Positions 29,619 to 62,817 of a stretch of DNA of 64,000 bases are shown one piece after another; positions within the stretch are counted from its first letter, which is position 1; each line of letters begins with the position of its first letter. A program made the translations under genes and the position numbers. Below the pieces are notes generated by a model. It was given only the letters and a program-made list of their open reading frames with translations, was not told the origin of the DNA and did no database searches. The stretch covers positions 64,001 through 128,000 of the forward strand of contig CAWCKJ010000007.1 in the NCBI GenBank assembly GCA_963796105.1, in the 5' to 3' direction. This DNA is from a candidate division FCPU426 bacterium (lineage in GTDB: Bacteria; Oederibacteriota; Muellerivitia; Muellerivitales; Muellerivitaceae).

Positions 29619-30635
29619 ATGAAACAAATTTGGATCACGCGCCCCATCGGCCCTGACGGCCTGGAAATAAAAGAAGCCACCCTTGCCCCCCCAGGGCCTG
29701 GACAAATGACCGTGGAGATCAAGGCCGCGGGTTTCAACTTCGCCGACTTGATGGCTTCCAAGGGTCTTTACCCGGACGCCCCCAAACTGCCCTGCGTGGT
29801 GGGTTACGAGGTGTCTGGTACCGTGGAAGCCGTGGGCGAGGGCGTGGACAGGCATTGGCTCGGTAAAGGCGTTTTCGCCTTCACCCGTTTTGGGGGGTAT
29901 TCGGAAAAAATCAATCTCCCTTTGGAACAAGTTTTCGAGAGGCCCAATAATTTAAGCCCTGATGAAGCCGCGGCCCTTCCCGTGAACTACATCACCGCCT
30001 ACCAGTTGGTGGTGGCCATGGGAGGTTTGAGGAAAGGCGAAACTATCCTGATCCATAACGCGGGAGGGGGTGTCGGCTTGGCCGCGCTCCAGTTCGCCCG
30101 CAAAATCGGGGCTGTCACTTTGGGTACCGCCAGCGCCGGCAAGCATGCTTTTTTAAAGGCCCAGGGTCTGGATGAAGCCATCGATTACCGCACAGGAGAT
30201 TGGGAAAAGGAAGTCCTGAGGATTACCGGGGGCAAGGGCGTCGAGTTGATCCTGGACCCCATCGGGGGGGCTTCCTGGAGGAAAAATTACAAGCTCCTGC
30301 GCCCATCCGGGCGCCTGGGGGTTTACGGCATTTCAAGCGCTTCCCTGTCCAAGGGCCCCAAACTACTGACATTCCTGAACCTTCTCGCCAGGATGCCTTT
30401 TTTCAATCCGGTTTCATTGATGAATAATAACCGGGGTGTTTTCGGGGCGAACCTGGGGCATCTATGGGGTGAGACTGAAAAAGTGAAGGGATGGTTCACG
30501 GAGATCCTGAAAGGCGTCCGTGATGGATGGCTCAAGCCCTACGTGGACCGGACTTTCCGTTTCTCCGAGGCGGCCGAGGCTTTCCGTTACGTGGAGCAAC
30601 GCAAGAACACGGGCAAAATCCTGCTGATTCCGTGA
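29619..30635 (+). CDS. Medium-chain NADPH:quinone oxidoreductase (VAT-1-like)
   Basis: GFNFAD, HNAGGGVG, terminal GKILL. Confidence 0.9.
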   Translation: MKQIWITRPIGPDGLEIKEATLAPPGPGQMTVEIKAAGFNFADLMASKGLYPDAPKLPCVVGYEVSGTVEAVGEGVDRHWLGKGVFAFTRFGGYSEKINLPLEQVFERPNNLSPDEAAALPVNYITAYQLVVAMGGLRKGETILIHNAGGGVGLAALQFARKIGAVTLGTASAGKHAFLKAQGLDEAIDYRTGDWEKEVLRITGGKGVELILDPIGGASWRKNYKLLRPSGRLGVYGISSASLSKGPKLLTFLNLLARMPFFNPVSLMNNNRGVFGANLGHLWGETEKVKGWFTEILKGVRDGWLKPYVDRTFRFSEAAEAFRYVEQRKNTGKILLIP

Positions 30636-30700
30636 TTGATAATCATTTCAACTGTCCACTACACATTCCCGTCATGGATAATCATCATCGGAAGAAAAGT

Positions 30701-30946
30701 CTAATTCCCAAATAATTTCTGAAGTAATTCCTGTCGGTCTAATTTTAAATGTTCAGCTACGTCCGAAAGAATCGCTGATAGGGTGCCTGTCCTGAGGGGG
30801 TTATGTGAGGGGATCGTAATGTGATGCTGGCCGTTTTGGATCGTTGTCAAACGCATGTGGCTTCCGGTTTGACGGGTAATTACATAACCGAAAACCTTAA
30901 GTTCATTGGCGAGATCCCCTCCCGACAAATTCCGGGGGAGCCTCAT
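30701..30946 (-). CDS. hicA: HicA-family toxin
   Basis: RQTGSH, ITIPSH, GTLSAIL. Confidence 0.88.
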   Translation of the reverse strand: MRLPRNLSGGDLANELKVFGYVITRQTGSHMRLTTIQNGQHHITIPSHNPLRTGTLSAILSDVAEHLKLDRQELLQKLFGN

Positions 30947-31149
30947 ACCGCGATAGTTTCCTCGCGTACAAAATGCAGCCGGATTACCTTGGGCATATTT
31001 TTTTCATCAAAATGACATTTCACCGCGTCACGAATCATTTCATGAAGTTGGTCCAGGTTGTCGGCTTCGGTAAATAAGGATTCACCCAAAGCGCGGGCTA
31101 CATAGCCCCCTTCCGGGGAATCTTCGATCATAAAAATCAACTCATTCAT
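30943..31149 (-). CDS. hicB: HicB-like antitoxin
   Basis: EGGYVARALGESLFTEAD; overlaps the hicA start; GGAGG RBS. Confidence 0.8.
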   Translation of the reverse strand: MNELIFMIEDSPEGGYVARALGESLFTEADNLDQLHEMIRDAVKCHFDEKNMPKVIRLHFVREETIAV

Positions 31150-31307
31150 GACAACCTCCATAAAACATTATACAAAAGGTATTGGCTTTAAACGACACCA
31201 TCATAATTTAGGACATATTAAGGGTACCTCAAAAAATTCATTGTAGAGGCTGTGGAATAAGCACATTCGTGGCTAAAACTGTGGTTTCGAAGAAACCGGT
31301 GGTTCAA

Positions 31308-31517
31308 CCGAGGGGGTTTTCGGGGCGAACCTGGGGCATCTATGGGGTGAGACTGAAAAAGTGAAGGGATGGTTCACGGAGATCCTGAAAAGGCGTCCGC
31401 GATGGCTGGCTCAAACCCCACGTGGACCGGACTCTCCGTTTCTCCGAGGCGGCCGAGGCTTTCCGTTACGTGGAGCAACGCAAGAACACGGGCAAAATCC
31501 TCCTGGTTCCGTGATTG
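31308..31517 (+). pseudogene. Duplicated 3' end (about 210 bp) of the quinone oxidoreductase gene
   Basis: High identity to 30431-30638 with scattered substitutions and a 1-bp insertion. Confidence 0.9.
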
Positions 31518-31602
31518 GGAAGACATTTCGGCCAACCATTCATCTCAATTTTGAAATAAATTCCACCTTGACAAAGTTATACCAAAGTTATACTTTTGAT
31601 TT

Positions 31603-31839
31603 ATGAAAACAGCCATATCCATACCCCCAAAAGTTTTTGACAACGCCGAAAAGCTGGCGGAAAAGATGGGAGTTTCCCGGAGCCAGCTTTATGTCACTGC
31701 CATCAAGAATTACCTGGATGGCCATAATGACGATTCCGTGACGGCCAAGCTCAACGATGTTTATGCCCACGTGGATTCAAAACTTGATCCCGCTTTGAGG
31801 AAGATTCAGGCAAAATCCATCTCCAAGGATGGGTGGTGA
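31603..31839 (+). CDS. RHH antitoxin (ChpI/MazE-like)
   Basis: MKTAISIP...VSRSQLY; overlaps the mazF start. Confidence 0.85.
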   Translation: MKTAISIPPKVFDNAEKLAEKMGVSRSQLYVTAIKNYLDGHNDDSVTAKLNDVYAHVDSKLDPALRKIQAKSISKDGW

Positions 31840-32177
31840 ACCGGGGCGAAATTTGGTGGGCGGATTTACCCGGCCCCAAGGCCTCGGAACCCGGCTACAG
31901 CCGTCCCATTCTCATCATCCAATCAGACGCTTTTAATCGAAGCCGCATTCAAACCGTTGTCGCTGTCGCCCTGACATCCAATCTCCGATTAGCCGACGCT
32001 CCCGGAAACGTGAAACTCTCCGCGCGCAAAACGGGTCTTCCGAAGGATTCGGTGGCCAACGTGTCCCAAATCATCACACTGGATAAAACCTTCCTGCGGG
32101 ATAAATCGGGAAAATTGGATGAACTGACGGTATCCCGCGTTGAAGACGGGTTAAAACTTTTGTTGAATTTGAAATAA
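31833..32177 (+). CDS. mazF: PemK/MazF toxin
   Basis: RGEIWWADL, SEPGYSRP, QSDAFN, DSVANVSQIITLDK. Confidence 0.92.
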   Translation: MVNRGEIWWADLPGPKASEPGYSRPILIIQSDAFNRSRIQTVVAVALTSNLRLADAPGNVKLSARKTGLPKDSVANVSQIITLDKTFLRDKSGKLDELTVSRVEDGLKLLLNLK

Positions 32178-32191
32178 AACCTTGCGCCATT

Positions 32192-33211
32192 GGAAAATAA
32201 GGGTCAGGTCTTGAAAACGGCATTACGAATCTTTTCCTCAAGACCCTTTTCCTCACGAATGCGTTTCTTCATCCTTGCCACCGCATGGCTTACCGCGGAG
32301 TATTTTACCCCCATCTTCTTAGCCACTTCCCCTAAACTTAATCGGCATATCTGACGCAAGGCCCATACCGCCGCTTCCCGCCCTTCGTTTTTCCGCCGGG
32401 TCGGAACCACCATATCTTTCACCATAATCCCATGCATTTTCCCGATCTTTTTCAGCGTTTCCTCGGCATCCGGCAAGCCCAATTTCTGTTGTTCCCTGTG
32501 CGCCTCATGGTGATGCTTCCCCCTAATCTTCCCTTTAATGTGCTCCTCAAAACTTTTTCCCCCCAATATGATCTGCGATGTTACTTGCTCCCATGGGCTC
32601 TCTTTCTTCCTCAAACCTTCCAACACGAATTTCCGGTACAAACCCTGCGCCTCATGTTTCACTTTTCCAAACTGTTCCAAAAGCCATTTATTTTCCACCC
32701 ATTCCGGCTCGGTCTCATAACCTGCCGTAGCCCGGTAACTGCTCCATTTCCATTCCTTCGGATGCTTGACCATCTTGGCCCGGACCGGATTCAAGACCAC
32801 ATACCTGCATAATTCCTTTAAATAACTATCCTTATGGACCAAAATCGCCTTATAACGCCCCTGGTACAAATGTCCCGCGCGGTTGTGACGCCGGTTGAAT
32901 CGAAGGGTATAAATTCCATTTAAGTGGCGGAGGGCTTGGGAAAGATTAGCTTCGGGGGTTTCTACCAGCAAATGGTAATGGTTATCCATCAACACCCAGG
33001 CATGAACGACCACCCCGTAAGAATCAACGGTATCCGCCAACGCCCGAATAAAAAGCCACCGGTCCTTGTCATCGCGAACGATAGGTCTTCGTTCGTTCCC
33101 GCGGGAGGTGATGTGATATACAGCGCCTGGATATTGAATTCTTAAGGGACGTGCCATTTCAGTATCTTAATCCGCCCTTATGCCGTTTTCAAGACCTGAC
33201 CCTTGTGTTCT
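32192..33211 (-). mobile_element. IS-like element, copy 1: Y1/HUH transposase with about 32-bp terminal inverted repeats
   Basis: Left GGAAAATAAGGGTCAGGTCTTGAAAACGGCAT, right ATGCCGTTTTCAAGACCTGACCCTTGTGTTCT; near-identical copy at 35763-36782. Confidence 0.9.
32204..33157 (-). CDS. REP-associated-like (RAYT) Y1 tyrosine transposase with C-terminal HTH
   Basis: YHITSRGN, LMDNHYHLL (HUH), GHLYQGRY, RYVVLNPVRA (catalytic Tyr), WSSY. Confidence 0.92.
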   Translation of the reverse strand: MARPLRIQYPGAVYHITSRGNERRPIVRDDKDRWLFIRALADTVDSYGVVVHAWVLMDNHYHLLVETPEANLSQALRHLNGIYTLRFNRRHNRAGHLYQGRYKAILVHKDSYLKELCRYVVLNPVRAKMVKHPKEWKWSSYRATAGYETEPEWVENKWLLEQFGKVKHEAQGLYRKFVLEGLRKKESPWEQVTSQIILGGKSFEEHIKGKIRGKHHHEAHREQQKLGLPDAEETLKKIGKMHGIMVKDMVVPTRRKNEGREAAVWALRQICRLSLGEVAKKMGVKYSAVSHAVARMKKRIREEKGLEEKIRNAVFKT

Positions 33212-33569
33212 GCCCGTCATCATTTTCTCGGTCCTGGGGGAACAAAAGGACATCCAAAAAGGGATGGATTTAGGGGCCAACGATTACACCGTGAAGGGTT
33301 TTTATACTCCCCGGCAAATCCTCAGCAAGATCAAGGATTTGATGACGAAAGCCGGCCCCGCAAAAGGGGGCGCTTCTTTCAAGGTGAAGGTGATGGATGG
33401 CACGGAGGACGCTCCCCTTCTTTGGTCGGAATTGGGGTTTACCAGCAAGAACAAATGTCCCCAGTGCCAGGGTGAACTGGTATTGGAGCTGTTTCCGGAC
33501 TATGTCCACAATGAGGGCCATTGGTTCACGGCGCACTTCCTTTGCGGCAAGTGCAACAAAGCCTATTAA
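33212..33569 (+). pseudogene. 5'-truncated response regulator with Zn ribbon
   Basis: Similarity to 34437-35081 starts exactly at the element's right IR; phospho-acceptor half of the receiver domain absent. Confidence 0.85.
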
Positions 33570-33595
33570 ATTAACCCACCCCTACCCAAAGAATT

Positions 33596-34063
33596 TAGCC
33601 ACGGATGTGCCAATCTTCCAAAAACCTTTACGGAGATTGGTACGATACCAGCCCCAATATCATCCTAATGGAAGGCTGGCATGCATGGAATTCATGGGAT
33701 TTAAAACGCATTTTGATCATGTTCTATGGTTAAGCTGACAGCCGATGGAAAAATTAATTTTTCCACGGTCTGTAGGCTTGACCATAACGCCCATCGGGCG
33801 CAAGAGCCGTGCTCTTGTCATGATCTGAGACATTTTTGAATTATTCATTGTACATTTTTCATTTTGTTCATTTTTATTCATCCCCCTGCATGCCGAACCT
33901 CATTAAAGCCTTCAATGAAAGTTCGGTATAGTGCCGATTTCCTCAAATGCTTCAGGGTTGAATCAGCACATCCCCTGAATCCGTGCCGATCATCCATAAA
34001 GATATATTGAGATCGGTACTGTACCAGCCTTCTTCTATTGCCTTATGGCAGGCTGGCACGTGG
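33596..34063. repeat. Cluster of three twin-hairpin elements (33596-33693 +, 33887-33973 -, 33983-34063 +) plus additional hairpins
   Basis: TGCCRATC-N19-GATYGGTA-N3-TACCAGCC-N20-GGCTGGCA architecture. Confidence 0.7.
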
Positions 34064-34436
34064 CAAAGACTTGTCTTGCTTAACGCCTTTTAGAATTAAA
34101 AACATCTAATTTTGTTTATCTTTGTTAACTTGATTTATTAATCGAAAAATCATGAAACTTGTCATTCAATCCCATAAATGTGCAAAAGCCTCCTTCTCCA
34201 CTATCGTCATGACAACGTCGAATAAATTGGGAATTCCCCAGGACCCGAGGGATAATTTTCTTATCTCGGCGCGTGATTGTCTTCATCCTGCCAGGACGCC
34301 GTCAATACCAAGCAAGCTTTTCCCCGCTTTGTTTCTTTAGCACCCCATGAATTTTTTGGAACAAGCTTGCTGTTTCCCGGCAACCCATTTTCATCAAGAG
34401 ATCCCAGCCACAATCATCATTCCAGGAGGAACCATC

Positions 34437-35081
34437 ATGCAAAATGAAACTACTCAATCCCCAAACGAGGTTAAACCTTTGGCCGAGAAGGGGAAAAAAG
34501 GAACCATACTGATCATGGAGGACCAGCGCGGCTTTCGCAGGGTTTACAAGGATGTCCTGGAGGCGGATGGTTACGCGGTGATTGAGAGCACCAACGGCGA
34601 GGAAGGCTGGGATATGATCCTGGCCCATAAGCCGGACCTGGTTCTTTTGGACTTGGGGCTTCCGGTGCTGGACGGATTCCAGGTCCTCGAGAAAATCCGC
34701 CGGAGCGGGCAGACCAAGGATATTCCCGTCATTATTTTCTCGGTTCTCGGGGAACCCCGGGATGTCCAAAAAGCCCTTCAAATGGGCGCCAACGACTATA
34801 CCGTCAAGGGGTTTTATACGCCCAGGCAGATCCTGAGCAAGATCCGGGATCTCCTGCACGACCGCCAGAAAAAAGCCGTGAAAAATTCCTACCGGCTCCA
34901 TATCAAGACCGGCCAGGGCAACGAGCCCCAGCTCCAGCAGGATCTAGGGATGGAAGCCGGCCTCAAGTGCGCCCAATGCCTGGTCGTCCTGGAAGCGGAA
35001 TTTTTCCCTGATTACGCCCGCTCCGACGGCCACTGGTTCGCCGCCCGCCTGGTTTGCCCCAACTGCGGAAAACCTTTTTAG
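34437..35081 (+). CDS. Response regulator receiver with C-terminal CxxC...CxxC Zn-ribbon-like domain
   Basis: MED, PDLVLLDLGLP..DG, GANDYTVK; CAQC and CPNC; AGGAGG RBS. Confidence 0.88.
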   Translation: MQNETTQSPNEVKPLAEKGKKGTILIMEDQRGFRRVYKDVLEADGYAVIESTNGEEGWDMILAHKPDLVLLDLGLPVLDGFQVLEKIRRSGQTKDIPVIIFSVLGEPRDVQKALQMGANDYTVKGFYTPRQILSKIRDLLHDRQKKAVKNSYRLHIKTGQGNEPQLQQDLGMEAGLKCAQCLVVLEAEFFPDYARSDGHWFAARLVCPNCGKPF

Positions 35082-35230
35082 GAACAAGGATATTCGGCGG
35101 ACGCAAACAAGAAAGCGGCGTCTCATGGACAACTTGGGGACGCGGGATTCAAGCGGGGGATTTCAGGGCCTTAAGTGATTCCGTTGTTAAACAACTGGAA
35201 TAAGCGGGACAATTATTTCCCCGAAGAACT

Positions 35231-35557
35231 TTAAGCGTGGGTTAATTGTTTCGTTCGATTGCCAACACCCGTCACAATTTTGAAGCGCAAACCCATAGGC
35301 GCCAATACACGCGTTAGGTTCCGGTACATGGGGTTTCCATCCTTCGAAACAATCGCGGTAATGGCTTGGCGGGACAAATGGGCTTCGCGGGCAAGCCAAG
35401 TTTTTCCTCCCATTGCTTTAGCGCAATCATTGAGGCAGGCCAGGAGAATTCCGGGATCGCCATCCTCCAAAGCGGCGTTTAAATATCCGGCCCTTTCTTT
35501 AGGATCTTTCAGCTTTTTAAGCAAATATTCCTTGTAACTTCCCGATGTTTTATCCAT
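35231..35557 (-). CDS. Addiction-module antidote protein (HigA/COG3636-like HTH)
   Basis: YLNAALEDGD, AKAMGG, LAREAHLSRQ, GNP. Confidence 0.85.
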   Translation of the reverse strand: MDKTSGSYKEYLLKKLKDPKERAGYLNAALEDGDPGILLACLNDCAKAMGGKTWLAREAHLSRQAITAIVSKDGNPMYRNLTRVLAPMGLRFKIVTGVGNRTKQLTHA

Positions 35558-35608
35558 AACGAAACCTCCATTTATCCAATGATCAATCCTTCTTTTTCCC
35601 TTTCGCTT

Positions 35609-35762
35609 CTAGGACTTTTCTCGCCTTAAAATCCGCCCAATACTCATGGGCCTTAGCGACATCACTTTCCTGCCTTTTCTTCGTTCCCCCGTGAATAGCA
35701 AAACAACCTTTTGTTCCTCAGTTAACGCGTAATAAATCCTATAACCAGGTCCGAATTCGAAT
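35609..35762 (-). pseudogene. Truncated, frameshifted RelE/HigB-like killer toxin
   Basis: FEFGPGYRIYY...VVLL, then GGTKKRQESDVAKAHEYW in another frame; 5' part cut at the transposase element IR. Confidence 0.8.
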
Positions 35763-36782
35763 AGAACATAAGGGTCAGGTCTTGTAAACGGCATTACGAA
35801 TCTTTTCCTCAAGACCCTTTTCCTCACGAATGCGTTTCTTCATCCTTGCCACCGCATGGCTTACCGCGGAGTATTTTACCCCCATCTTCTTAGCCACTTC
35901 CCCTAAACTTAATCGGCATATCTGACGCAAGGCCCATACCGCCGCTTCCCGCCCTTCGTTTTTCTGCCGGGTCGGAACCACCATATCTTTCACCATAATC
36001 CCATGCATTTTCCCGATCTTTTTCAGCGTTTCCTCGGCATCCGGCAAGCCCAATTTCTGTTGTTCCCTGTGCGCCTCATGGTGATGCTTCCCCCTAATCT
36101 TCCCTTTAATGTGCTCCTCAAAACTTTTCCCCCCCAATATGATCTGCGATGTTACTTGCTCCCATGGGCTCTCTTTCTTCCTCAAACCTTCCAACACGAA
36201 TTTCCGGTACAAACCCCGCGCCTTATGTTTCACTTTTCCAAACTGTTCCAAAAGCCATTTATTTTCCACCCATTCCGGCTCGGTCTCATAACCTGCCGTA
36301 GCCCGGTAACTGCTCCATTTCCATTCCTTCGGATGCTTGACCATCTTGGCCCGGACCGGATTCAAGACCACATACCTGCATAATTCCTTTAAATAACTAT
36401 CCTTATGGACCAAAATCGCCTTATAACGCCCCTGGTACAAATGTCCCGCGCGGTTGTGACGCCGGTTGAATCGAAGGGTATAAATTCCATTTAAGTGGCG
36501 GAGGGCTTGGGAAAGATTAGCTTCGGGGGTTTCTACCAGCAAATGGTAATGGTTATCCATCAACACCCAGGCATGAACGACCACCCCGTAAGAATCAACG
36601 GTATCCGCCAACGCCCGAATAAAAAGCCACCGGTCCTTGTCATCGCGAACGATAGGTCTTCGTTCGTTCCCGCGGGAGGTGATGTGATATACAGCGCCTG
36701 GATATTGAATTCTTAAGGGACGTGCCATTTCAGTATCTTAATCCGCCCTTATGCCGTTTTCAAGACCTGACCCTTGTGTTCT
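35763..36782 (-). mobile_element. IS-like element, copy 2: Y1/HUH transposase with TIRs
   Basis: AGAACATAAGGGTCAGGTCTTGTAAACGGCAT ... ATGCCGTTTTCAAGACCTGACCCTTGTGTTCT; 1020 bp, same length as copy 1. Confidence 0.9.
35775..36728 (-). CDS. RAYT-like Y1 tyrosine transposase, copy 2
   Basis: Same motifs as copy 1; differs at only a few residues (HEAQG/HKARG, RRK/RQK, VFKT/VYKT). Confidence 0.92.
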   Translation of the reverse strand: MARPLRIQYPGAVYHITSRGNERRPIVRDDKDRWLFIRALADTVDSYGVVVHAWVLMDNHYHLLVETPEANLSQALRHLNGIYTLRFNRRHNRAGHLYQGRYKAILVHKDSYLKELCRYVVLNPVRAKMVKHPKEWKWSSYRATAGYETEPEWVENKWLLEQFGKVKHKARGLYRKFVLEGLRKKESPWEQVTSQIILGGKSFEEHIKGKIRGKHHHEAHREQQKLGLPDAEETLKKIGKMHGIMVKDMVVPTRQKNEGREAAVWALRQICRLSLGEVAKKMGVKYSAVSHAVARMKKRIREEKGLEEKIRNAVYKT

Positions 36783-36783
36783 T

Positions 36784-37613
36784 GTCCAGCCCCGCCATGC
36801 CGGTAGCTAAAACCCTCATGCCGGTAGGTGATCCCCGCCATGCCGGTAGGCAACCACTCCATGCCGGTAGGTGATCCCCGCCATGCCGGTAGGCAACCAC
36901 TCCATGCCGGTAGTTGAATCCCCCATGCCGGTAGTCCAGCCCCGCCATGCCGGTAGCTAAAACCCTCATGCCGGTAGGCGACCCCCACCATGCCGGTAGC
37001 TGAAACCCCCATGCCGGTAGGTGATCCCCGCCATGCCGGTAGGCAACCACTCCATGCCGGTAGTTGAATCCCCCATGCCGGTAGTCCAGCCCCGCCATGC
37101 CGGTAGCTAAAACCCTCATGCCGGTAGGCGACCCCCACCATGCCGGTAGCTGAAACCCCCTGCCGGTAGTCCAGCCCCGCCATGCCGGTAGCTAAAACCC
37201 TCATGCCGGTAGTCCAGCCCCGCCATGCCGGTAGCTAAAACCCTCATGCCGGTAGTCCAGCCCCGCCATGCCGGTAGCTAAAACCCTCATGCCGGTAGGT
37301 GACCCCCACCATGCCGGTAGCTAAAACCCTCATGCCGGTAGTTGAAAGCCCCATTCCGGTAGGCGACCCCGTCCATGCCGGTAGCTGAAACCCCCATGCC
37401 GGTAGGTGATCCCCGCCATGCCGGTAGCTAAAACCCTCATGCCGGTAGGTGACCCCCGCCATGCCGGTAGTTGAAAGCCCCATTCCGGTAGGCGACCCCG
37501 GCCATGCCGGTAGCAGAAACCCTCATGCCGGTAGGCAACCTCCGCCATGCCGGTAGTTGAAAGCCTCATGCCGGTAGGCGATCCCCGCCATGCCGGTAGT
37601 CGAGACCCCGTCC
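36784..37613. repeat. Interspaced tandem array: about 38 x CATGCCGGTAG with 10-11-nt spacers (period 21-22 bp)
   Basis: Parsed by eye; recurring spacers such as TCCAGCCCCGC, CTAAAACCCT, GTGATCCCCGC, GCAACCACTC, TTGAATCCCC, CTGAAACCCC. Confidence 0.97.
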
Positions 37614-37770: not shown

Positions 37771-38442
37771 TTAAATCTTATCGAGCAAGGACTGGAGGCC
37801 GGTAAAATCTGGCAAGATATGTTCCGCCCCGGCTTCCCGGAGGGCCGGTTCGTTCCCGCCGGAGTCGATCCCTATAAACCCCCACCCGAGGGCCTTGGCG
37901 GCCTGGATGTCCCAAATCCAATCCCCGACATAAACGACCTTCTCAAAAGTCACGCCCTTTAGGGCTTTCGTGGCTTTGGTCAGGGCCGCCAGGAGGATCC
38001 ATTCCCGGACCTTGCCGTCATCGGCTGAGGCGAAGGGGATATTCCTGGGGTCAAACCCGGCGCTTTGGAGCTTGTATCTTCCCGCGAACTCCCAATTTCC
38101 CGTCGCGATGGCGGCGGTCCAATCGGACCCGCTTAAAAGCCCCCTCAGGCACTCTTTGGCGCCCGGCATCTCCCCAAAGGGGGCATTTCCATATTCCTTC
38201 TCAAGCCAGGAAGCCATGCTCTTCTTGACCTTCTCGATATCCTGGAGCGCGCAAGGCCGTTTCAAGTCCTTTTCGAATATCTCGGAGAGAACGCCCGAAT
38301 CGGTGGAATGGGCATAAGCCGACCAGTCGTCCTTGATCGTGATCCCGAAGGTTTCCTTGAGGGCCCGGATATAGGCGATGTCGTTCCTTTTCCGGTGGTA
38401 TTGGACCAGCGTGCCATCAATGTCGAACACGGCTAATTTCAT
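37771..38442 (-). CDS. HAD-family hydrolase
   Basis: FDIDGTL, ATGN, YVGDWIWD. Confidence 0.92.
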   Translation of the reverse strand: MKLAVFDIDGTLVQYHRKRNDIAYIRALKETFGITIKDDWSAYAHSTDSGVLSEIFEKDLKRPCALQDIEKVKKSMASWLEKEYGNAPFGEMPGAKECLRGLLSGSDWTAAIATGNWEFAGRYKLQSAGFDPRNIPFASADDGKVREWILLAALTKATKALKGVTFEKVVYVGDWIWDIQAAKALGWGFIGIDSGGNEPALREAGAEHILPDFTGLQSLLDKI

Positions 38443-38566
38443 TTTTATTTAACTCTTCTAATTTTTTTGGCCGAATATCTGCGGTTTTTAATATTTCATT
38501 TCAAAGCCGTTTACGCCATATCTGATTAATTCTTTTCCGCGTCCAAGGGACGACTCGCCGCACCCC

Positions 38567-38644
38567 ATATCAGCCTTCCATAAACCTGATAGTGAGACTG
38601 GCATAGTACCGATTTCTATTACCGTTTTGTTGTAAATCGCTGCA
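38567..38644 (-). repeat. Twin-hairpin element, degenerate copy 5
   Basis: Reverse strand reads CGATTT-N18-AAATCGGTA-CTA-TGCCAGTC-N20-GGCTGATA. Confidence 0.6.
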
Positions 38645-38808
38645 GTGTAGGGCAGGGCTTAGGGCCGCCATGTGGCCTATTTCTGAAATCAGCCGGGCAT
38701 CCATCTTAAGATTACCCACATTAGAATTTTCCTTTGCCCGCTCACCGGCACCGCACGAATGAAAACCCATAGACTAAAAGCGGGGAAAGAGTCTTCGCCC
38801 AAACGAAT

Positions 38809-53080: not shown

Positions 53081-53632
53081 GTAGGGTCGAGGACTGGCGA
53101 GGTGATGTGCAGGTTGATCCTTGGCTTGTTTCCCCGTTTCCTTCGCTCCGCGGACATTACTCCGCTTCTCCTGTCTGCCGAAGCTTCAGCGCAGGCAGAT
53201 AGCTACTTTTAACCCGTCCTACTCCCTCTTGCCTTCGACCGCCTTCCCGCGTTGCGTTATACGGCCTACCTTTTTCCAAGTATTTCTACTTGGGGCAAGG
53301 AGGGTCTCTCCAGTTGCTCAATGTGTCCTTGTCTTCATGCCGTGGCTAAGCACCCCGCCAGAGTGTTCCAGCGCATTGGCCATCTGGCCGCTGTTCCATG
53401 TTGCCTTCATCCCACGACGGAGGATTCGGCCTCTGGGGCTATTGTTTTCGGGGCCACCTATGCCTTCACTTGCGTTACGGCCTGACGACTCGCTCACCAT
53501 CCCGAAGATGGCTTTGTCGATGGGCTTCAGGCATTAAGTTTCCCGCTTGCCTGCCATCCTAGCTAATGGGCTTTGGCTATTACCCATGCAAGTCTACCTC
53601 TTGCTGAACACTCCTGCCTTTTCTGGACGCGC
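53081..53632 (-). mobile_element. Group II intron, degenerate ORF-less copy lacking domain V
   Basis: Same 5' (GCGCGTCCAGAAAAGGC) and 3' (GTCCTCGACCCTAC) ends as the adjacent copy; about 310-bp internal deletion. Confidence 0.85.
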
Positions 53633-54494
53633 GTAGGGTCGAGGACTGGCGCGGCGATGTGCAGGTAAACCCTTGGCTTGTTTCCCCGTTTCCGGTTCCG
53701 TGCCCGTTTAGGGTCTTCCATCATTCCGTTTCCAGCCCCCGCCACCTCGAACGCAACGTGCGGATTTCCCGCATTGCGCTCTCCTGTTGCTTTCGCGTCA
53801 AAGTTTATGGTGCTTATCGAAACCGGCAGTGCTTTCAAGTATGGTTCGCCTATGAACTTTCCCCTACTCCACCTGTCCCGGCTTTCTAAGCTTTCCCTTT
53901 AACGTATATCCCTCGTCTCAGGTCTTGCAGACTAATGGACGTCTTTTTCATACCGTCCCTGCCTCCCACTTTTGCCGAAAGATTTCACAACAGCAGGGTT
54001 ACTTCGCTCCACGGACATTACTCCGCTTCTCCTGTCTGCCAAAGCTTCAGCGCAGGCAGATAGCTACTTTTAACCCGTCCTACTCCCTCTTGCCTTCGAC
54101 CGCTTTCCCGTTTTTCGGTTATACGGCCTACCCTTTTCCAAGTATTTCTACCTGGGGCAAGGAGGGTCTCTCCAGTTGCTCAATGTGTCCTTGTCCTCAT
54201 GCCGTGGCTAAGCACCCCGCCAGAGTGTTCCAGCGCATTGGCCATCTTGCAGCTGTTCCATGTTGCCTTCATCCCACGACGGAGGATTCGGCCTCTGGGG
54301 CTATTGTTTTCGGGGCCACCTATGCCTTTACTTTCGTTACGGCCTGACGACTCGCTCACCATCCCGAGGATGGCTTTGTCGATGGGCTTCAGGCAGTCGG
54401 TTTCCCTCCTGCCTGCCATCCTAGCTAATGGGTTTTGGCTATTACCCATGCAAGTCTACCTCTTGCTGAACACACCGGCCTTTTCTGGACGCGC
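53633..54494 (-). mobile_element. Group II intron, ORF-less, with intact-looking DV/DVI
   Basis: DV GAGCGCAATGCGGGAAATCCGCACGTTGCGTTC (about 53749-53781, AGC triad); 3' end CCCTAC; remnant of intron-encoded protein start MKKTSISLQDLRRGIYVKGKA* at 53951-53886. Confidence 0.92.
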
Positions 54495-56257: not shown

Positions 56258-56354
56258 CTTTAGAATTTCCGAATCACACTGATACTCCAACTTCCAAGTC
56301 ACTGACACTTCGCCCGAAGTGAAACAAGAAAATTAGTACAAAAAGGTCTTTTTT

Positions 56355-56386
56355 CTTGTCCACGAAGGGTCCCCGTCGTGGACAAG
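56355..56386. repeat. Palindromic repeat CTTGTCCACGAAGGGTCCCCGTCGTGGACAAG
   Basis: Family members also at 54495-54506, 57533-57562, 57576-57603, 62136-62163 and 62793-62817. Confidence 0.85.
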
Positions 56387-56513
56387 CTTTCGGTCAAAAG
56401 CGTCACCAAGAACGCCATGTTAAAATTCGCGGCCAAAATTTTCCACACTGACTGTTTTTCAAAAGAACCAATCGCTCACCCTGCCCAATTTGGCCTTCCG
56501 GGCATGCGCCGGT

Positions 56514-57509
56514 CTAATTTTTTGATAGAATTTCCAACAATTGGGTTCGGTATTCCGGATCTTTCATGGTTTTTACTTCTCTTTCATCCATCAATTGTCT
56601 CAGCCAACATTTTTGATAAGGCTGACCGTTTTTCGCCATGGTTTTCAATTTTTCAAAAAAGTCCCTTATCACTGTTGGATAATCGAGGCCGGTACTCGCA
56701 ATAGCCCGATGTTTGGCAAAAGTTTTGTTTTTTGTATTTAAGTTTGGGTTTCGAAGGTCATAAGTGAAAACAAGTTCGTCTGTGAATAACAATCCGGTTC
56801 CCTTCTTTGGCTTCTCTGGTAAATGGCAGTTGAGCCTGTTGTAATAACCTATATAGAAATTAAATTTTACTGTGAATTGGAGTTGGTCTTTTATTTGCTT
56901 GATATTTGAGCTGTAATCAAAGTCGTCGTCTCCTACCGAAACACTCCCTTCCAGTGGCAGCTCGCCGATTTCCTGATATTTGCCGTTTATAATTTTAAAA
57001 ACATCATAGTCGTAAGATTCGACACCGCTTCCACCATCTGTTTGAACTCCGAGCAAAACAAATAAGTTCGGCGGGCTATCCACAATCATTGGTTTAATTG
57101 CCTTGTATTTTGCGAGTTCGGTAACCATTCCAAGATACGACATTTTTCCCTGTTCTAAAATAAATAGGCCGGTGCAATTATTGCCATTCCCATTAACTGA
57201 AATCGTCAATAAGGTTCTTCCATCATTTATTTTGGAGGCCACAATAACTGGCGTTGTTTCAGCTAATTCTTTGGCGTCGGTCTCTAACTTATCTCCTTCT
57301 GAAAGGAATTGAGGAAGCAAATCGGAAAAGAATTTGTCCCGTCCTTCTCCGTTCACGTGATATTCGTTCAAAATCTCCAATAATTTTCCCCTGGGGGTTT
57401 TCCAATCCATCTTTTCACCAAGGCTTATAGAGGGGATAAGGCAGAGGACAATGAACCACGACAGAAAAAGTTGTCCGGGGACTATTTTGGTTTCTTGTCC
57501 ATTTTTCAT
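56514..57509 (-). CDS. Hypothetical secreted protein (AT-rich)
   Basis: Long ORF; AGGAG RBS before ATG at 57509; N-terminal hydrophobic segment. Confidence 0.7.
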   Translation of the reverse strand: MKNGQETKIVPGQLFLSWFIVLCLIPSISLGEKMDWKTPRGKLLEILNEYHVNGEGRDKFFSDLLPQFLSEGDKLETDAKELAETTPVIVASKINDGRTLLTISVNGNGNNCTGLFILEQGKMSYLGMVTELAKYKAIKPMIVDSPPNLFVLLGVQTDGGSGVESYDYDVFKIINGKYQEIGELPLEGSVSVGDDDFDYSSNIKQIKDQLQFTVKFNFYIGYYNRLNCHLPEKPKKGTGLLFTDELVFTYDLRNPNLNTKNKTFAKHRAIASTGLDYPTVIRDFFEKLKTMAKNGQPYQKCWLRQLMDEREVKTMKDPEYRTQLLEILSKN

Positions 57510-57532
57510 ACTATTCTCCTGCAAGAAAACTT

Positions 57533-57603
57533 TTGTCCACGGCGCGGGCACTTCATGGACAACCCTTTTTCCCTCTCCACTCTGGGTCCCCGTCGTGGAC
57601 AAG
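57533..57603. repeat. Two copies of the TGTCCACGAC/GTCGTGGACA palindromic family
   Basis: TTGTCCACGG...CATGGACAA and TCCACTCTGGGTCCCCGTCGTGGACAAG. Confidence 0.75.
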
Positions 57604-57651
57604 GAAGAATGTTAATTTCCTATGATTGAATTGTTTACAACGCTAGGATAA

Positions 57652-57682
57652 AAATCGGGCAGGCAATTTAAGCCCGCCCGAT
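57652..57682. terminator. Possible intrinsic terminator hairpin downstream of dipZ
   Basis: ATCGGGCAGGC...GCCCGCCCGAT stem with an A-run on the left (U-tail on the minus strand). Confidence 0.4.
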
Positions 57683-57730
57683 CACTTAGAAGATTAAGCT
57701 TGAACACATCGAGCAAAGGTCAAAACCAAA

Positions 57731-59461
57731 TCATCCGAAAGTAAAGGCATAGACGGAGGTACCTGCGTTTTGGAATTCGATACGCAGGCGATGGGAGCCG
57801 GGCTTTCCCTTTAAGTCCGCCAGGTTATAAAGCCGCTGGGTGTCCAGTGTCACCTTTCCATCCTTCACATCCGCTCCTCCCTCGCCGCCAATGGCTTTTC
57901 CATCAAGGAAAAGGGAGACCTGGTCGCCCTTGTTCGCCGGGCCGATCACCAGATACACCTTGTCCGCCGTGAATTGAATCTCAAGGGCCGAGCCCTGATC
58001 CGGCTTGGCCGCCTCGCCCGTAAGCATCCAACCGCCCTCGTAGCCGATCTGGTGGGACTTCAGGGACTTCGGCAGGGAATAAACCTGCTTCCCGGCGACG
58101 GGTTTTTGCGGCGAGACGAAACGCTCCAATCGGTTCAACCCCAAATAAGATTCGGGGGTCTGGTCGTAATCCTCAGATGGGGCCTGCGCCAGGGTAGCGG
58201 CCCCTTCCACGGGATGGCCGGCCTCAGCCAGCAGCTTTCTGATGGCGGCGTCCATCTCCTCGTAATGGCCCTCGCTGAAATGAGCCAGACGGATATGACC
58301 CTTGTCGTCGATCAGGTACTCGGCGGGCCAGTACATATTTTGGTAGGCGTTCCAGGTTTTAAAGTCGTTGTCCTGGGGGACAGGATAGGTGATCTCGAAC
58401 TGTTTCAGGGCTTTTTGGACGTTGGCGGTTTCCTTCTCAAAGGCAAACTCGGGCGCGTGGACCCCCACTAGGACGAAATGGTCCGGACCGTATTTTTGAT
58501 ACCAGGCCTTGGTGTTGGGAAGGGTCCGGAGACAGTTGATGCAACTGTAGGTCCAAAAGTCAACCAAAACCACCTTTCCCCTCAACCCCGCCAGTGTTAG
58601 GGGAGGGCTGTTGAGCCAGTTCGTGATGCCGGCGAACTCTGGCGCCGGGCCCATGTCCGCAAGTTCCCCCCCATTTCTGCGCTTTCCTGGCGGGATTTCC
58701 TTCCCCTCAGGGTATCCAACTGCTCGCTGACGATCTTGTTGTTTTCAACCCCATTGACCAGGCTCCCATAGGAAGGAAAAGCCTCCAGGATCTTCAGCTG
58801 AATGGTCTTATCGTAATTGGTGTAAATGAGAAGGGCCACGCCGATCATGATGACGCCGAAGACCTGCTGGATGCGGCCCGTGTACTTGTTTAACTTGCGC
58901 ATCCGGGCGAAGAGGAAAGAACCCCCCAGGGAGACCAGGAACAGCGGTATCCCCAACCCCACCGCGTAGGCGAGGGTCACCAGTACCACCTGAAGATTGA
59001 CCGATTGGGTGGCGGCTAAGGTGGCGATGGTGGCCAGGATCGGTCCGGCGCAGGGCGCCCAGACCAAGCCGATGGAAAAACCCGCCACGTAGCCAGCGCC
59101 GAATCCCGTCCCTTCGCCCTTCCCCTGAAGGCGGTTTTGCAGGGGCTGAAGAACCTGGTTAATCCAGGTCTCGAACTTCGCGCCCAGGGAGGGGAATAAA
59201 AGGGCCACACCCAAAAGGCCGATGACAATGACCGCGACTAGTCTGAAGACATTGGCGTCAATGTGGAGGAAACGCTCTAGGTAGGACACAAACAGCGTGA
59301 AAAGGGTGAAGCTGGTCATGACCCCCAGGGTCAGGCCGAAGGGTTTTTCCCTTTCCCCCGGTTGAGGAGACAGAAAGCACCAGGGGCAGAAGGGGCCAAA
59401 TGCAGGGGGCGAGGATGGTGGCGAAGCCAGCCAGGAAGCTGAAGAAGAGAAGGAAAAGCAT
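57731..59461 (-). pseudogene. dipZ: DipZ-like CcdA plus thioredoxin fusion with two frameshifts (pseudogene or sequencing error)
   Basis: LAPCIWPLLP, WAPCAGPIL and DFWTYSCINC lie in three ORF pieces; breaks at homopolymers near 59350 and 58668. Confidence 0.85.
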
Positions 59462-59562
59462 GGGAACCCCTTTCGGTGGATTTGTTGACTTAAACTACAA
59501 CGAATCACCCTGAAAATTTACGGAAACCCCTTCCATCAACACCTCTTTTTGCGTGAACCCCA

Positions 59563-60225
59563 TCAAGGGTGTTGGTGAATGGCTTCTTGCGCCACCTTCA
59601 ACAATTCATCCGTATCAACCCGCACTTTAATGTCTGGGTTGAAATAAACGTAATGAATAATCCCTTTTTGATCGACGACATAAGCGGCCGGGACCGGAAG
59701 CAGGTGGAGCTGGTTCCCCGTTGCCGAATCCAGGTCCACGCCGAAACTTTTCATTTTGGCCAGGGTTTCCGGGTTGAGCCGGTAGGCCAGGTGAAATTTC
59801 CGGGTCAATTCCATGGAACGGTCCGAAAGGAGGGTGTAGTTGATCTGGTGCTTGTCCAGGCTTTCCTTAAGTTTTTCCGGCTTATCCGGGCTTATGGCCA
59901 GCATCTGGTATCCCATTTCTAGGAGTTTTGGCTCGATCTTCACCAACTGGCCCATTTGAAGGTTGCAATAGGGGCACCATCCGCCTCGGTAAAAGATCAG
60001 CACCGTCGGCTTTTTCAGGATTTCGGACTTAAAATGAAAATCTTTCCCGTCCAGGGTTTTTAAAATCCCGTCAGGTATGGAATCCCCTGATTTAAGTGGG
60101 TGGACATCTTCGGCTTTGTCCGCTACGAATTTGTTCATGGGTGCGGCCACGACACCCCCCCTTGAAGCAACCATCGAAAGGCAAAAAAAGCTTACGAATA
60201 AAAACGCCCCTATTTTCACTCTCAT
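59563..60225 (-). CDS. AhpC/TSA-like peroxiredoxin-family protein
   Basis: FYRGGWCPYC, AISPD, LPVPA. Confidence 0.9.
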   Translation of the reverse strand: MRVKIGAFLFVSFFCLSMVASRGGVVAAPMNKFVADKAEDVHPLKSGDSIPDGILKTLDGKDFHFKSEILKKPTVLIFYRGGWCPYCNLQMGQLVKIEPKLLEMGYQMLAISPDKPEKLKESLDKHQINYTLLSDRSMELTRKFHLAYRLNPETLAKMKSFGVDLDSATGNQLHLLPVPAAYVVDQKGIIHYVYFNPDIKVRVDTDELLKVAQEAIHQHP

Positions 60226-60460
60226 ATCCTCCGTTGACTATTGGTTGAACGGAATATTAAAAATCCAAAAAGGGCCTTATGACCCATCTCTTGGTAGGCG
60301 AAAGGAGAAAATCGAACGGCAGGAAGTCAACTAGGCATTGAAATTGCCGCCAGTTCTTTTTCGGCGCCCCAAAAGCTTTTTTCCGCCTCCCGTGGTGCCC
60401 TTTCCCTTCGAGGGCCCAGGGCCCTGAGCACCCTTGAAGGTGTGGTTCAACTTTCCTTTT

Positions 60461-60985
60461 TTACGGTTTCTTTTCGGACACGAACCGCACTGCGGCGGAG
60501 TTTATGCAATACCTCAGGCCCGTGGGTAGCGGCCCGTCGTCGAAAACATGGCCCAGGTGCCCCCCACAGCGGGGGCAATGGACCTCCGTCCGGTCCATGC
60601 CCAAGGAAGAATCGGTTTGGGAGGCCACGTTTTCCGGATAGAGGGGCTTATAAAAACTGGGCCACCCGGTTCCAGACTCGAACTTGGTGCCGGAGGAGAA
60701 AAGCTCCAGGCCGCACCCGGCGCACACATAGACCCCCTTCGCATGGTTGTCCCAATAGGCGCCGGAAAAGGCGGCTTCCGTTCCCCCTTGTCGAAGGACA
60801 TCGAACTGTTCGGGATTGAGGATTTTCTTCCATTCGGAGTCGGTCTTAACGACCTTGTCACCCCTGTATTTTCCTTTATAACATTCTTTCTCCTTGTGGA
60901 CCGCCGAATCTTTCGCGAACACGGCATAGGATAGGGCGGATAACACGAAGAGAATTCCCAATAACAATCCCATCATTTTTCTCAT
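60461..60985 (-). CDS. msrB: Peptide methionine-(R)-sulfoxide reductase with signal peptide
   Basis: [30 protein letters not shown]. Confidence 0.96.
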
Positions 60986-61169
60986 GGCAAGCTTTTTAGG
61001 TGGTAAATTTCTTTCCCCTCTTTACAAGAATACGGCTCAGGGCAGGATAAGGTTACCCTGCCATCGGTTACATCTTTTGGGTCGTCTGGGTCAAGAACAC
61101 CCAAGGAAATCCGGGGGTCCCGGGAACCAAAATAATATACATAATCCTTTTGTTGAGGCCGTATCTGTT

Positions 61170-61952
61170 TCAAGGAACAATTGGGTAAACCCAACCCACA
61201 CCACCAATTTTCATAGTGTACTCATCTTCCAAAAAAATGGCGAGGCCGGTGAAGCTCTTTTTCCATTCAGGCTCCAAGGAAACGGTAGTTTTAATCCATT
61301 CTGCTTTTTTCAAGGAAACACTCCTTATTCCAACAACCGAGCGAACTACAAAATTTTCGGTCAAGTCCCTGCCTTTGTTTTCTCCACTTTCAACATGGGT
61401 TATTAAATTATTTTCGAAAACAGCCATCATGACTTTCCAGGGCCCGCCCGTTTGCGATCCGGCTAAAGGCTGGAGCTTAATCTTGAGGGCCATTCCTCCC
61501 GTGACCGGCGAAACAGCGACGACCACCCGAGCCGATGCCTTGAGGTTGTCCGGCTCCTCGATTTCCCGGTGGGCTCTGGCGCCATCCGAAGCGACGAAAC
61601 CTGAGCGTCCCGAAACAACCATTTCAGGGGTATAAAGTGAGGAGGAACTCAAAGCGGAAGAATATTGACGCTGACGTTCCGTGAAAAATGACGAGGAGAA
61701 GGGATCTTTCCATCCCAGGTAATCCCAGTAATCCACGTGGAAGGCGAGCGGCAGGGCTTTACCGGCGCGGAAAAGTTCCATTCCCCAGCCGTTGACAAGG
61801 TCTCCCGCCGGAGGGCAACTGGAACAGCCTTGGGAAACAAACAATTGGATCAAGAGTGGCTGTTCGGGAATTGGACGGGACTGTCCATGGGCCGGAATCA
61901 GCAAAGACAGCCCCATCAATACTAGCGACGCTTTGAAATATTTAAAAACCAT
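61170..61952 (-). CDS. DUF1223 thioredoxin-like secreted protein
   Basis: SQGCSSCPPA, HVDYWDYLGWKDPF, YTP, GENKGR. Confidence 0.88.
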   Translation of the reverse strand: MVFKYFKASLVLMGLSLLIPAHGQSRPIPEQPLLIQLFVSQGCSSCPPAGDLVNGWGMELFRAGKALPLAFHVDYWDYLGWKDPFSSSFFTERQRQYSSALSSSSLYTPEMVVSGRSGFVASDGARAHREIEEPDNLKASARVVVAVSPVTGGMALKIKLQPLAGSQTGGPWKVMMAVFENNLITHVESGENKGRDLTENFVVRSVVGIRSVSLKKAEWIKTTVSLEPEWKKSFTGLAIFLEDEYTMKIGGVGWVYPIVP

Positions 61953-62135
61953 GCTTTTCTTTGACACCACTTTAAAAGAGTCGCCATTAAAGGTTATTGG
62001 CGGGGATAAGGCAAGGCCCGAAGAACCCGCTAAATGATTTAGATTCACGTTTTTTCCAATTTATCTTTCAGTAGCGAAATACCCTTGTGGCTTTGTTTAA
62101 GTTACTGATTTTTGATTAATATTTGAAATGTTCAT

Positions 62136-62163
62136 TGTCCACGACGGGTCCCCGTCATGGACA
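62136..62163. repeat. Palindromic repeat family copy
   Basis: TGTCCACGACGGGTCCCCGTCATGGACA, 13 bp from the stop of the 62177 gene. Confidence 0.85.
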
Positions 62164-62176
62164 GCTTTAAAGCCAT

Positions 62177-62764: not shown

Positions 62765-62792
62765 TTTTTCTCCTTAATAAAACTATTTATCA

Positions 62793-62817
62793 TCCAATCT
62801 GGGTTCCCGTCGTGGAC
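62793..62817. repeat. Palindromic repeat family copy with degenerate left arm
   Basis: TCCAATCTGGGTTCCCGTCGTGGAC abutting the stop codon of the 62818 gene. Confidence 0.7.

Follow-up and report, generated by a model that had tools for sequence, protein, structure and literature searches.

The tandem array at positions 36782-37613 of the window (the whole stretch of 64,000 nucleotides analyzed here) is, with a probability of about 0.85, one member of a satellite family dispersed in this genome, and its adjacency to a transposase gene appears to be secondary. The array belongs to a non-coding satellite family with a unit of two helical turns that this genome shares with one congener, and that likely grew via slippage or unequal recombination during replication. 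Its 11-bp core is probably kept unchanged because a host DNA-binding protein docks there in a phased and direction-specific manner; such a protein would meet a core once per 21.5 bp, always on the same helical face. Replication rather than transcription is the probable cause of the orientation of the arrays, and a composite TIRtron, on joining the array, likely removed or interrupted its left part. For this explanation taken in all its parts, the odds are about even.

Architecture of the array

The array consists of 38 cores of 11 bp, the first at 36796-36806 and the last at 37589-37599. Of these, 35 are exact copies of CATGCCGGTAG, two carry a single G>T substitution, one carries a 1-nt deletion, and all 38 contain GTAG, as stated in the first-pass annotation, which had been made from the letters of the window and which also correctly gave the near-invariance of the core and the number of units. 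The 37 spacers are 10 nt (n=19), 11 nt (n=17) or 9 nt (n=1) long, and long and short spacers alternate in 33 of the 36 steps, compared with a mean of 18.4 in shuffled arrays and with no case among 20,000 shuffles that reached this value. The mean period is 21.43, with 36 of the 37 periods being 21 or 22 nt, so that both the alternation and the helical phasing proposed earlier are borne out; the higher-order unit is 43 bp, and TRF reports a 43-nt period with 19 copies. Stop codons are present in every one of the six frames (22/20/18 and 11/3/4), and the array is intergenic, although the minus strand contains repeat-derived ORFs of 79-151 codons.

The spacer vocabulary is small and recurrent (17 distinct spacers), as had been noted, but the spacers are not unrelated words: each is a variant of either a short or a long consensus, with nearest-neighbor distances of 1-3 substitutions and a single exception at 7. 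The distal diversity noted earlier is real, given that all nine spacers that occur only once are found at positions 17-37 of 37 (p ~1e-5 by naive shuffling). The uniformity of the proximal half results from an exact 150-bp block duplication (36859-37160; a 152-nt exact run at offset 150) and from three exact copies of one 43-bp dimer (37161-37298; a 95-nt exact run at offset 43), with the unique spacers located distally. The array starts mid-unit at 36782, two bases to the left of the previously assigned start at 36784 and at the first base past the end of the second TIRtron copy (36781), which confirms the earlier description of this junction; its left edge is sharp and its right edge decays. 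In three sister arrays (two on contig C10 and one on C12), unique spacers are present at both edges, and therefore the apparent polarity of the window array is best attributed to its cut left edge together with the block duplications.

The satellite family in this genome and beyond

The same core forms six further arrays on five contigs of this genome (G000; contigs are numbered with the prefix C), namely, arrays of 10 units on C2, 4 on C3, 28-29 on C4, 26-28 and 16-17 on C10, and 13 on C12, in addition to two remnants of 2-3 units. Array size for this core thus varies from 2 to 38 units, the window array being among the longest members of the family. The same-core arrays sit in composite patches, stacked with different repeat families. 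In total, the genome contains about 70 patches of non-coding repeats that amount to 36.9 kb (70 loci retained of 422 TRF loci after coding repeats, CRISPRs and IS-internal repeats were dropped), with TRF periods that peak at 21-23, 42-43 and 52-53; several of the families resemble sequence variants of one another. The window array accordingly shows the characteristics of the 20-23-nt satellite class: four or more units of 10-200 nt in tandem, most of them identical in length to within ±1, location outside protein-coding sequence, dispersal alongside other families of the same unit length (seven arrays among the ~70 patches), and a sequence restricted to a narrow lineage but containing a conserved short motif.

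The genes that flank the satellites are diverse. Among 94 flanking proteins (of 128 candidate neighbors, those omitted being multiple occurrences of IS and TIRYT genes as well as certain short ORFs), there are IS proteins, enzymes, AAA_14/DUF4143 ATPases (6), HTH proteins, antitoxins and unknowns, and in view of this mixture, a fixed association with toxin-antitoxin or other genes was rejected. The ATPases containing AAA_14 and DUF4143, which are the commonest non-transposase neighbors among the 94 scanned proteins, are encoded nearest to six patches (L036, L043, L052, L056, L063 and L064).

Outside this genome, an exact pair of cores was identified in one of 40 relatives, the congener G001, where the core is present at eight sites in similar patches with different spacers (a ninth match, C9:13413, was dropped as an apparent chance match in coding sequence). 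A composite satellite query matches one of the 30 other genomes of the family and detects no arrays in the remaining 29. This absence, the size range of 2-38 units and the interruption by insertion sequences are the grounds on which the arrays can be argued to be dispensable. Among 185,579 genomes, a single locus with three cores was found, a homogeneous 22-mer in Stieleria, and no viral sequence with the core was detected. Metagenomes yielded 11 stretches with two cores, mostly unrelated; one of these (L068) is a similar 22-nt array. The latter, at positions 1-209 of its contig, has ten units with the same core and with spacers like those of the C12 array, contains no transposase within its 2 kb, and possibly comes from a relative of this organism, which itself appears to be uncultured. 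Three short contigs from a soil DNA run cover 255 nt of the transposase at 100% identity and 73 nt of the array with 5 differences. In another genus of the family, there is an array with a 34-bp period and at least 12 units (L126, G022:C10:29874-30291) that is weakly similar to one of the satellite families described here.

The window contains several other repeats. Dispersed palindromic units at ~33580-34130 and 38563-38660 are present in many copies in G000 and G001; a small palindromic repeat of ~35-39 nt occurs in four to five copies within 56348-62820; and a 96-nt repeat is found at 2753, 7912 and 25811. The segment 53138-54468 includes two Rfam matches to group II intron D1-D4 on the minus strand (53470-53606 and 54332-54468), contained in an 862-bp direct repeat.

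Conservation and phasing of the core

Across six arrays, 17 derived states fall in core columns and 95 in spacer columns (22 and 21 columns per array, respectively), the core being defined post hoc as the best-conserved stretch. In all seven arrays, 131 of the 132 spacers are 10 or 11 nt long, and the mean period stays within 21.3-21.6, also for two arrays that have no spacer in common with the rest. The congener retains the core and the spacing but has replaced the spacers, which points in the same direction, that is, to constraint on the core. A period of 21.5 corresponds to two turns of 10.75 bp, so that the cores would all be exposed on one face of the helix. Judging from these sequence patterns, the foremost candidate function is that of a phased array for protein binding, and the putative status of the core as a selected binding site is about evenly balanced for and against. 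A link to bacterial histones was considered and rejected because PF00808 was not found in this genome, with one marginal match across 41 genomes.

The most serious alternative is that the satellites are functionless by-products of slippage. The period and the core would then derive from one ancestral unit of 21/22 nt that was homogenized mechanically, the orientation would reflect strand-dependent birth or loss at the replication fork, and GC-tolerant transposons would survive in the satellites because these make up most of the dispensable DNA that is GC-rich. The exact block duplications, the large variation in array size, the frequent disruption by insertion sequences, the unrelated types of neighboring genes and the resemblance between families are all compatible with neutrality, and core-anchored slippage or conversion could homogenize the core in the absence of selection. 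Such a process, however, does not readily account for the ratio of 17 to 95 between core and spacer changes, for the near absence of length changes or for the retention of the core in two species with replaced spacers, and neutral origin is accordingly judged unlikely, although it deserves more weight than any other competing explanation.

Insertion sequences within the satellites

Satellite DNA was defined by a k-mer mask, and IS ends were scored against this mask; the IS21 label is backed by IstB and rve domains and the IS1595 label by Pfam, and the other IS labels derive from size and ends. By this measure, 9 of 10 ends of IS21-B, 10 of 32 ends of IS21-A and 7 of 20 ends of IS3 (26 of 62 for IS21 and IS3 combined) are located inside satellites, compared with 1 of 198 ends for six other IS families. 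The background is 3.1% of intergenic positions and 10% of GC-rich (>60% GC) intergenic positions. Complete copies have satellite on both sides in 7 of 11 cases for IS21-A, 4 of 4 for IS21-B and 3 of 10 for IS3, and because target duplications are associated with satellite on both sides, the satellites predate these insertions. For example, an IS3 element splits a sister array with the same core (C10, 54447-55748), where 3 bp of target are duplicated and satellite units continue on both sides. The four complete copies of an IS21-family element of ~2.7 kb (G000:C11:130275, C12:173371, C4:848580 and C4:1593327) all lie within satellites, in three different repeat families, and have target duplications of 5-8 bp; this element is possibly a satellite-targeting IS.

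Some of this pattern would fit neutrality, given that a tenth of the GC-rich intergenic positions are satellite and that the flanks of satellite-hitting IS families are GC-richer (0.52-0.56) than those of the families that miss them (0.23-0.38, with one at 0.47). The 9 of 10 ends of IS21-B, however, far exceed the GC-matched background.

Orientation relative to replication

Replichores were inferred from skew at four-fold sites and from gene direction on the 16-contig assembly, using a custom gene caller; the result is clean, showing a switch in the vicinity of dnaA (C4:859 kb) and convergence on C3. The core of the window array as written on the plus strand is on the strand opposite to the inferred leading-strand sequence of the contig. 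Seven of the eight arrays of this core are oriented one way relative to the inferred replichore, and the counts for five other polarized families are 8/8, 5/5, 7/7, 8/8 and 9/11. Merging these six families yields 36 patches, 32 of which are oriented with the replichore, 3 against it and 1 mixed when the origin is placed at dnaA, or 33, 2 and 1, respectively, with the switch at 760 kb; three families that are not clearly polarized (GGAAC, 9/14; CCCAG, 2/4; GATAA, 12/18) are excluded from this count. For 32 of 35 patches, p is 4e-7 against an expectation of 50% and ~0.01 against the 74% leading-strand gene bias, both values being generous because the six families were chosen after the result had been seen and one of the patches in the count (C12:331k) was copied from another. 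In the congener, 6 of 8 patches clearly agree with the regional gene bias in stretches of 15-40 kb, and 2 are unclear.

The orientation of the patches is not compositional because core words that stand alone, away from any array, favor neither orientation (29:26, 61:74 and 164:152) and G-runs across patches favor neither strand (30 vs 34 of 69), whereas ordinary intergenic G-runs favor the leading strand by 750 to 432. The lack of bias outside arrays also led us to reject the core as a skewed word of the Chi or KOPS kind. A G-quadruplex or RRS-like cause of the polarity fits the window array, with 34 G-runs on one strand and 0 on the other, but not the patches overall. The sole same-core array in the opposite orientation (L017, G000:C12:233681-233950) has G-rich spacers of its own and lies between the type I restriction-modification genes hsdR and hsdM; the array at C4:1537400 also precedes an hsdM gene.

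A far-reaching extension of the preferred reading, which we regard as speculative and rather improbable, is that the genus has a hitherto undescribed, chromosome-wide system of fork-oriented, helically phased satellites that provides polar loading or pausing platforms for a putative host protein, and that IS21, IS3 and TIRtrons would land there because forks or single-stranded gaps persist at these sites.

The adjacent TIRtron and its composite block

The element that abuts the array is a TIRtron (copy 2, 35764-36781, minus strand, 1018 bp), the upstream end of which meets the array. It encodes a 317-aa transposase (35775-36728, minus strand) with NHYH at 59-62, YQ, YVVLNP and SS motifs and a C-terminal DnaA-like HTH domain; profile searches identify Y1_Tnp (2e-13), a weak match to Bac_DnaA_C (8e-4) and NF047646 above its cut-off. 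By these motifs and profiles, the protein is assigned to the TIRYT group, i.e., subclass 2.1 of the Y1 HUH transposases. The left (35764-35794) and right (36751-36781) terminal inverted repeats are 31-32 nt long and 94% complementary, and the right one, read inward as AGGGTCAG, matches the TIRtron consensus GGGGWSAS in 7 of 8 positions. The 7-8 bases outside the core of the inverted repeat differ between TIRYT ends and belong to the element.

A second TIRtron (copy 1, 32193-33210, minus strand), 99.4% identical to copy 2, is located to its left, and the 2553-bp passenger between the two copies (33211-35763) is 97.9% identical to G000:C6:198338-200895. Both ends of the passenger cut genes, leaving the 3' part of a response regulator and the 3' part of a RelE/HI1419-type gene, and the passenger also contains a complete response regulator and an HI1420-type antidote. 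The left flank of the block (31603-32177, plus strand) consists of a small ORF, likely an antitoxin, with no Pfam match, and a PemK/MazF-family gene; on the right, beyond the array, a gene for a HAD-family hydrolase (37771-38442, minus strand) points towards the array. Given that two TIRtron copies enclose a duplicated passenger, the whole is a composite block with four joints, of which the array junction is one, the remaining ones being two inside genes and one, at the outer end of copy 1, 15 bp past the stop codon of the mazF-like gene. The junction with the array is one-sided and has no target duplication. The trinucleotide TTG on both outer flanks of the block was considered as a 3-bp target duplication but is probably a chance occurrence because 11 of the 12 complete TIRYT copies have no target duplication. 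A search for an empty site in five relatives identified HAD homologs and a dispersed repeat only, with no syntenic junction or empty allele, and hence we infer the order of events at the junction.

Other observations on these elements include two similar duplications bounded by TIRYTs, one of 938 bp at C12:330358, derived from C11, and one of 259 bp at C4:1267239, as well as hybrids in which the end of one subfamily lies inside the gene of another (C4:1266475, C4:1325133 and C6:194871); these suggest that TIRtrons mobilize adjacent DNA without target duplication. A toxin-antitoxin cluster extends over 30701-32177 and 35231-35763 of the window and includes HicA with a small ORF, the MazF/PemK pair, and the HI1420-type antidote with its truncated RelE-type partner; the HicA pair lies between the two copies of a 212-bp duplication (~30428-30637 and 31305-31516).

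Specificity of the association with the transposase

The first-pass annotation had proposed that the array may be a substrate, landing pad or product of this transposase subfamily, pointing to GTAG as the guide tetranucleotide of TnpA-REP/RAYT, and had named co-location of the core and this transposase clade in related genomes as a check. Satellite is present at 6 of 47 TIRYT ends overall and at 1 of 9 ends of the transposase's own subfamily. This is a mild enrichment (13% vs 3%, p 0.003; p 0.06 when the background is set at 6%) and is below the rate for IS21 and IS3 (p 0.001). The only TIRYT end that meets this particular core is the window junction itself, the other five satellite junctions involving other cores, and TIRYT ends are joined equally to genes and to AT-rich DNA. 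None of the 12 complete TIRYT copies has satellite on both sides, and 4 of the 12 have it on one side. Within the first 10 flanking bases, GTAG was read by eye at 1 of the 47 ends, so that GTAG-guided targeting by this enzyme was rejected; the only regularity at these junctions, where the exact boundary is uncertain, is a pyrimidine-rich first base. Among relatives, the array is present at none of 28 loci with transposase homologs (up to 1.5 kb on each side; 28 examined of ~80 matches listed), and none of 13 outside loci with a core pair has the transposase. Thus, arrays exist without the transposase and their variation is of the slippage type, both of which the annotation had itself named as evidence against its proposal. 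With GTAG leaving no signature at junctions, no stem of REP size and no co-location, the specific transposase/GTAG hypothesis is not supported, and what remains is a weak general link between TIRYTs and satellites, resting on the mild enrichment and on the replication orientation common to both.

This remaining link could be taken to indicate that a TIRYT or another Y1 enzyme, acting on single-stranded DNA of the lagging strand, creates, spreads or targets the arrays. Indeed, 19 of 21 TIRYT genes (fragments included) are co-directional with inferred replication, whereas most DDE families are near even (10 of 14 for IS21-A), in keeping with the preference of IS608 and ISDra2 for the lagging strand described in PMC6006769. 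The number of TIRYT matches in this genome (21) is the highest among the 41 genomes searched, and the 938-bp segment duplicated next to the TIRYT end on C12 includes a satellite, so TIRtrons can carry satellites as passengers. Of the arguments still standing for the involvement of an HUH enzyme, this common polarity is the strongest, though no such enzyme is needed to explain it. Against such a role stand the single contact of TIRYT ends with this core and their equal joining to genes and AT-rich DNA, the homolog loci without arrays, the absence of a Y1 homolog from the stretches around the eight core sites of the congener, and a genome (G006) with 13 TIRYT matches but none to two composite satellite queries; the array also contains no REP-type hairpin. 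Creation or spread of the arrays by an HUH enzyme is therefore improbable, considerably more so than neutral slippage.

Transcription, RNA structure and CRISPR

An RNA-level function, whereby the array would be transcribed (e.g., by read-through from the HAD gene) and would serve as a protein sponge or as a source of RNAs of 21/22 or 43 nt, has some precedent, given that 52-nt satellites of Bacillus coagulans are transcribed (PMC8625621). Compared with dinucleotide shuffles, the plus-strand RNA has negative folding z-scores (-2.1 to -4.2), but 9 of 60 and 41 of 60 repeat-preserving controls fold equally well, so a hairpin or structured RNA was rejected; the DNA fold of the first 300 nt is ordinary as well (z 0.30). 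Satellite orientation is also associated with the direction of flanking genes because genes favor the leading strand, but at patches between divergent or convergent genes, orientation agrees with the replichore in 11 of 12 cases, as counted by hand. A combined promoter and terminator scan gave results at chance level, and an RNA role appears even less probable than an HUH origin.

A CRISPR-like memory array that gains spacers at its transposase-proximal or distal end, as might be imagined from the constant core, variable spacers and uneven spacer diversity, is largely refuted and has a negligible probability, in line with the earlier exclusion of CRISPR: typical CRISPR repeats are 24-48 bp (as given in a passage of PMC3733652) with unique foreign spacers, whereas here an 11-bp core separates spacers of 10-11 nt that recur within the array, are common to several arrays and are mutational variants of two consensus sequences, with no cas1 (the cas family searched) on contig C7, no Rfam match at the array, and ordinary CRISPR arrays and cas1 genes elsewhere in the genome.

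Comparison with known systems

The array resembles the GTAG REP/BIME elements and their RAYTs in having GTAG in each unit and in being clustered, intergenic and repeated. REP elements are, furthermore, targets of insertion sequences. According to the REP sections of PMC3733652, GTAG REPs have stems of 5-13 bp, and head-to-tail REP dimers are missing or rarer than expected. Unlike these elements, the array has no such stem after GTAG: a few of the long spacers could form 3-4 bp at the most (when G-T is allowed, three positions pair in 26, 22 and 15 of 35 distinct long spacers, but slid controls also score high at some positions). Its units are all head-to-tail, and it has no dedicated RAYT, given that among the 12 complete TIRYT copies it adjoins a single one, on one side. 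Identity with GTAG REPs or BIMEs was rejected because the array lacks both a stem-loop with GTAG at its foot and inverted dimers that flank a RAYT.

The neighboring element shares with the TIRtrons of subclass 2.1.2, as described in passages of PMC3733652 and PMC6006769, the long Y1 HUH protein, the NH[YF]H and SS motifs, the DnaA-like HTH, the GGGGWSAS-like inverted repeats and the lack of nearby REPs. The passages on subclass 2.1 in Quentin 2018 (PMC6006769) equate it with the TIRYTs of Di Nocera (PMC3733652) and report no REPs found nearby. In the motif table of PMC6006769, FQ and Y[IV]HLNP stand where the present transposase has YQ and YVVLNP. The TIRtrons in this genome are present in many recent copies, form a composite with a duplicated passenger, lack a target duplication in 11 of 12 complete copies and are co-directional with the fork, an IS-like activity not documented in the published passages (PMC3733652, PMC6006769). 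The locus is thus a useful example of TIRtron mobility: a composite element, without target duplication and fork-oriented.

Among replication-related sequences, Ter, KOPS and Chi are replication-polar chromosomal sites, and plasmid iterons are direct repeats of 17-22 bp with a conserved core in helical phase. The orientation of the array is tied to fork direction as in Ter, KOPS and Chi and as in the E. coli RRS (PMC11194060). In contrast to Ter, KOPS, Chi and iterons, the satellites form dozens of arrays of variable length, the core alone is not a skewed oligomer, and no initiator or trap gene is adjacent; the G-run bias is a property of the window array and not of the patches generally.

The closest parallel is with the bacterial non-coding satellites of ~21 and 52 nt with conserved short motifs and unknown function reported by Subirana and Messeguer (PMC8161180, PMC6749651, PMC8625621). 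In the passages of these papers that characterize the satellites, the common features are tandem arrays located between genes, several families per genome that agree in length but differ in sequence, lengths near two and five helical turns, lineage specificity, a motif conserved in all repeats, a CRISPR-like appearance without cas, and a proposed function in phased protein binding or RNA. The differences from these descriptions are the strict 21/22 alternation that produces a 43-bp unit, the stacking of families in composite patches, and the presence of the 52-nt class outside Firmicutes, to which these passages confine it. A term search of PMC8161180 found no mention of replication strand orientation or of IS21/IS3 landing. 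In the literature covered, from which most subscription papers are excluded, we found no published account of the alternation, stacking, replication polarity or IS targeting, and nothing on point for replication-oriented non-coding arrays or for IS21 in repeats; a 2020 J. Bacteriol. survey by Subirana and Messeguer may bear on these subjects.

To explain why many unrelated bacteria keep satellites of ~21 and 52 nt, binding of nucleoid proteins or RNA has been suggested in print. The arrays described here offer two testable handles on this question, a conserved 11-bp core with exchangeable spacers and an orientation that follows the inferred fork rather than the neighboring genes. If upheld in closed genomes, these features would tie satellites to replication and open the way to pull-down and inversion assays. 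Thus, the array is best viewed as belonging to a known kind, the bacterial 20-23-nt satellites, with the apparently new features of alternation, stacking, replication polarity and IS targeting.
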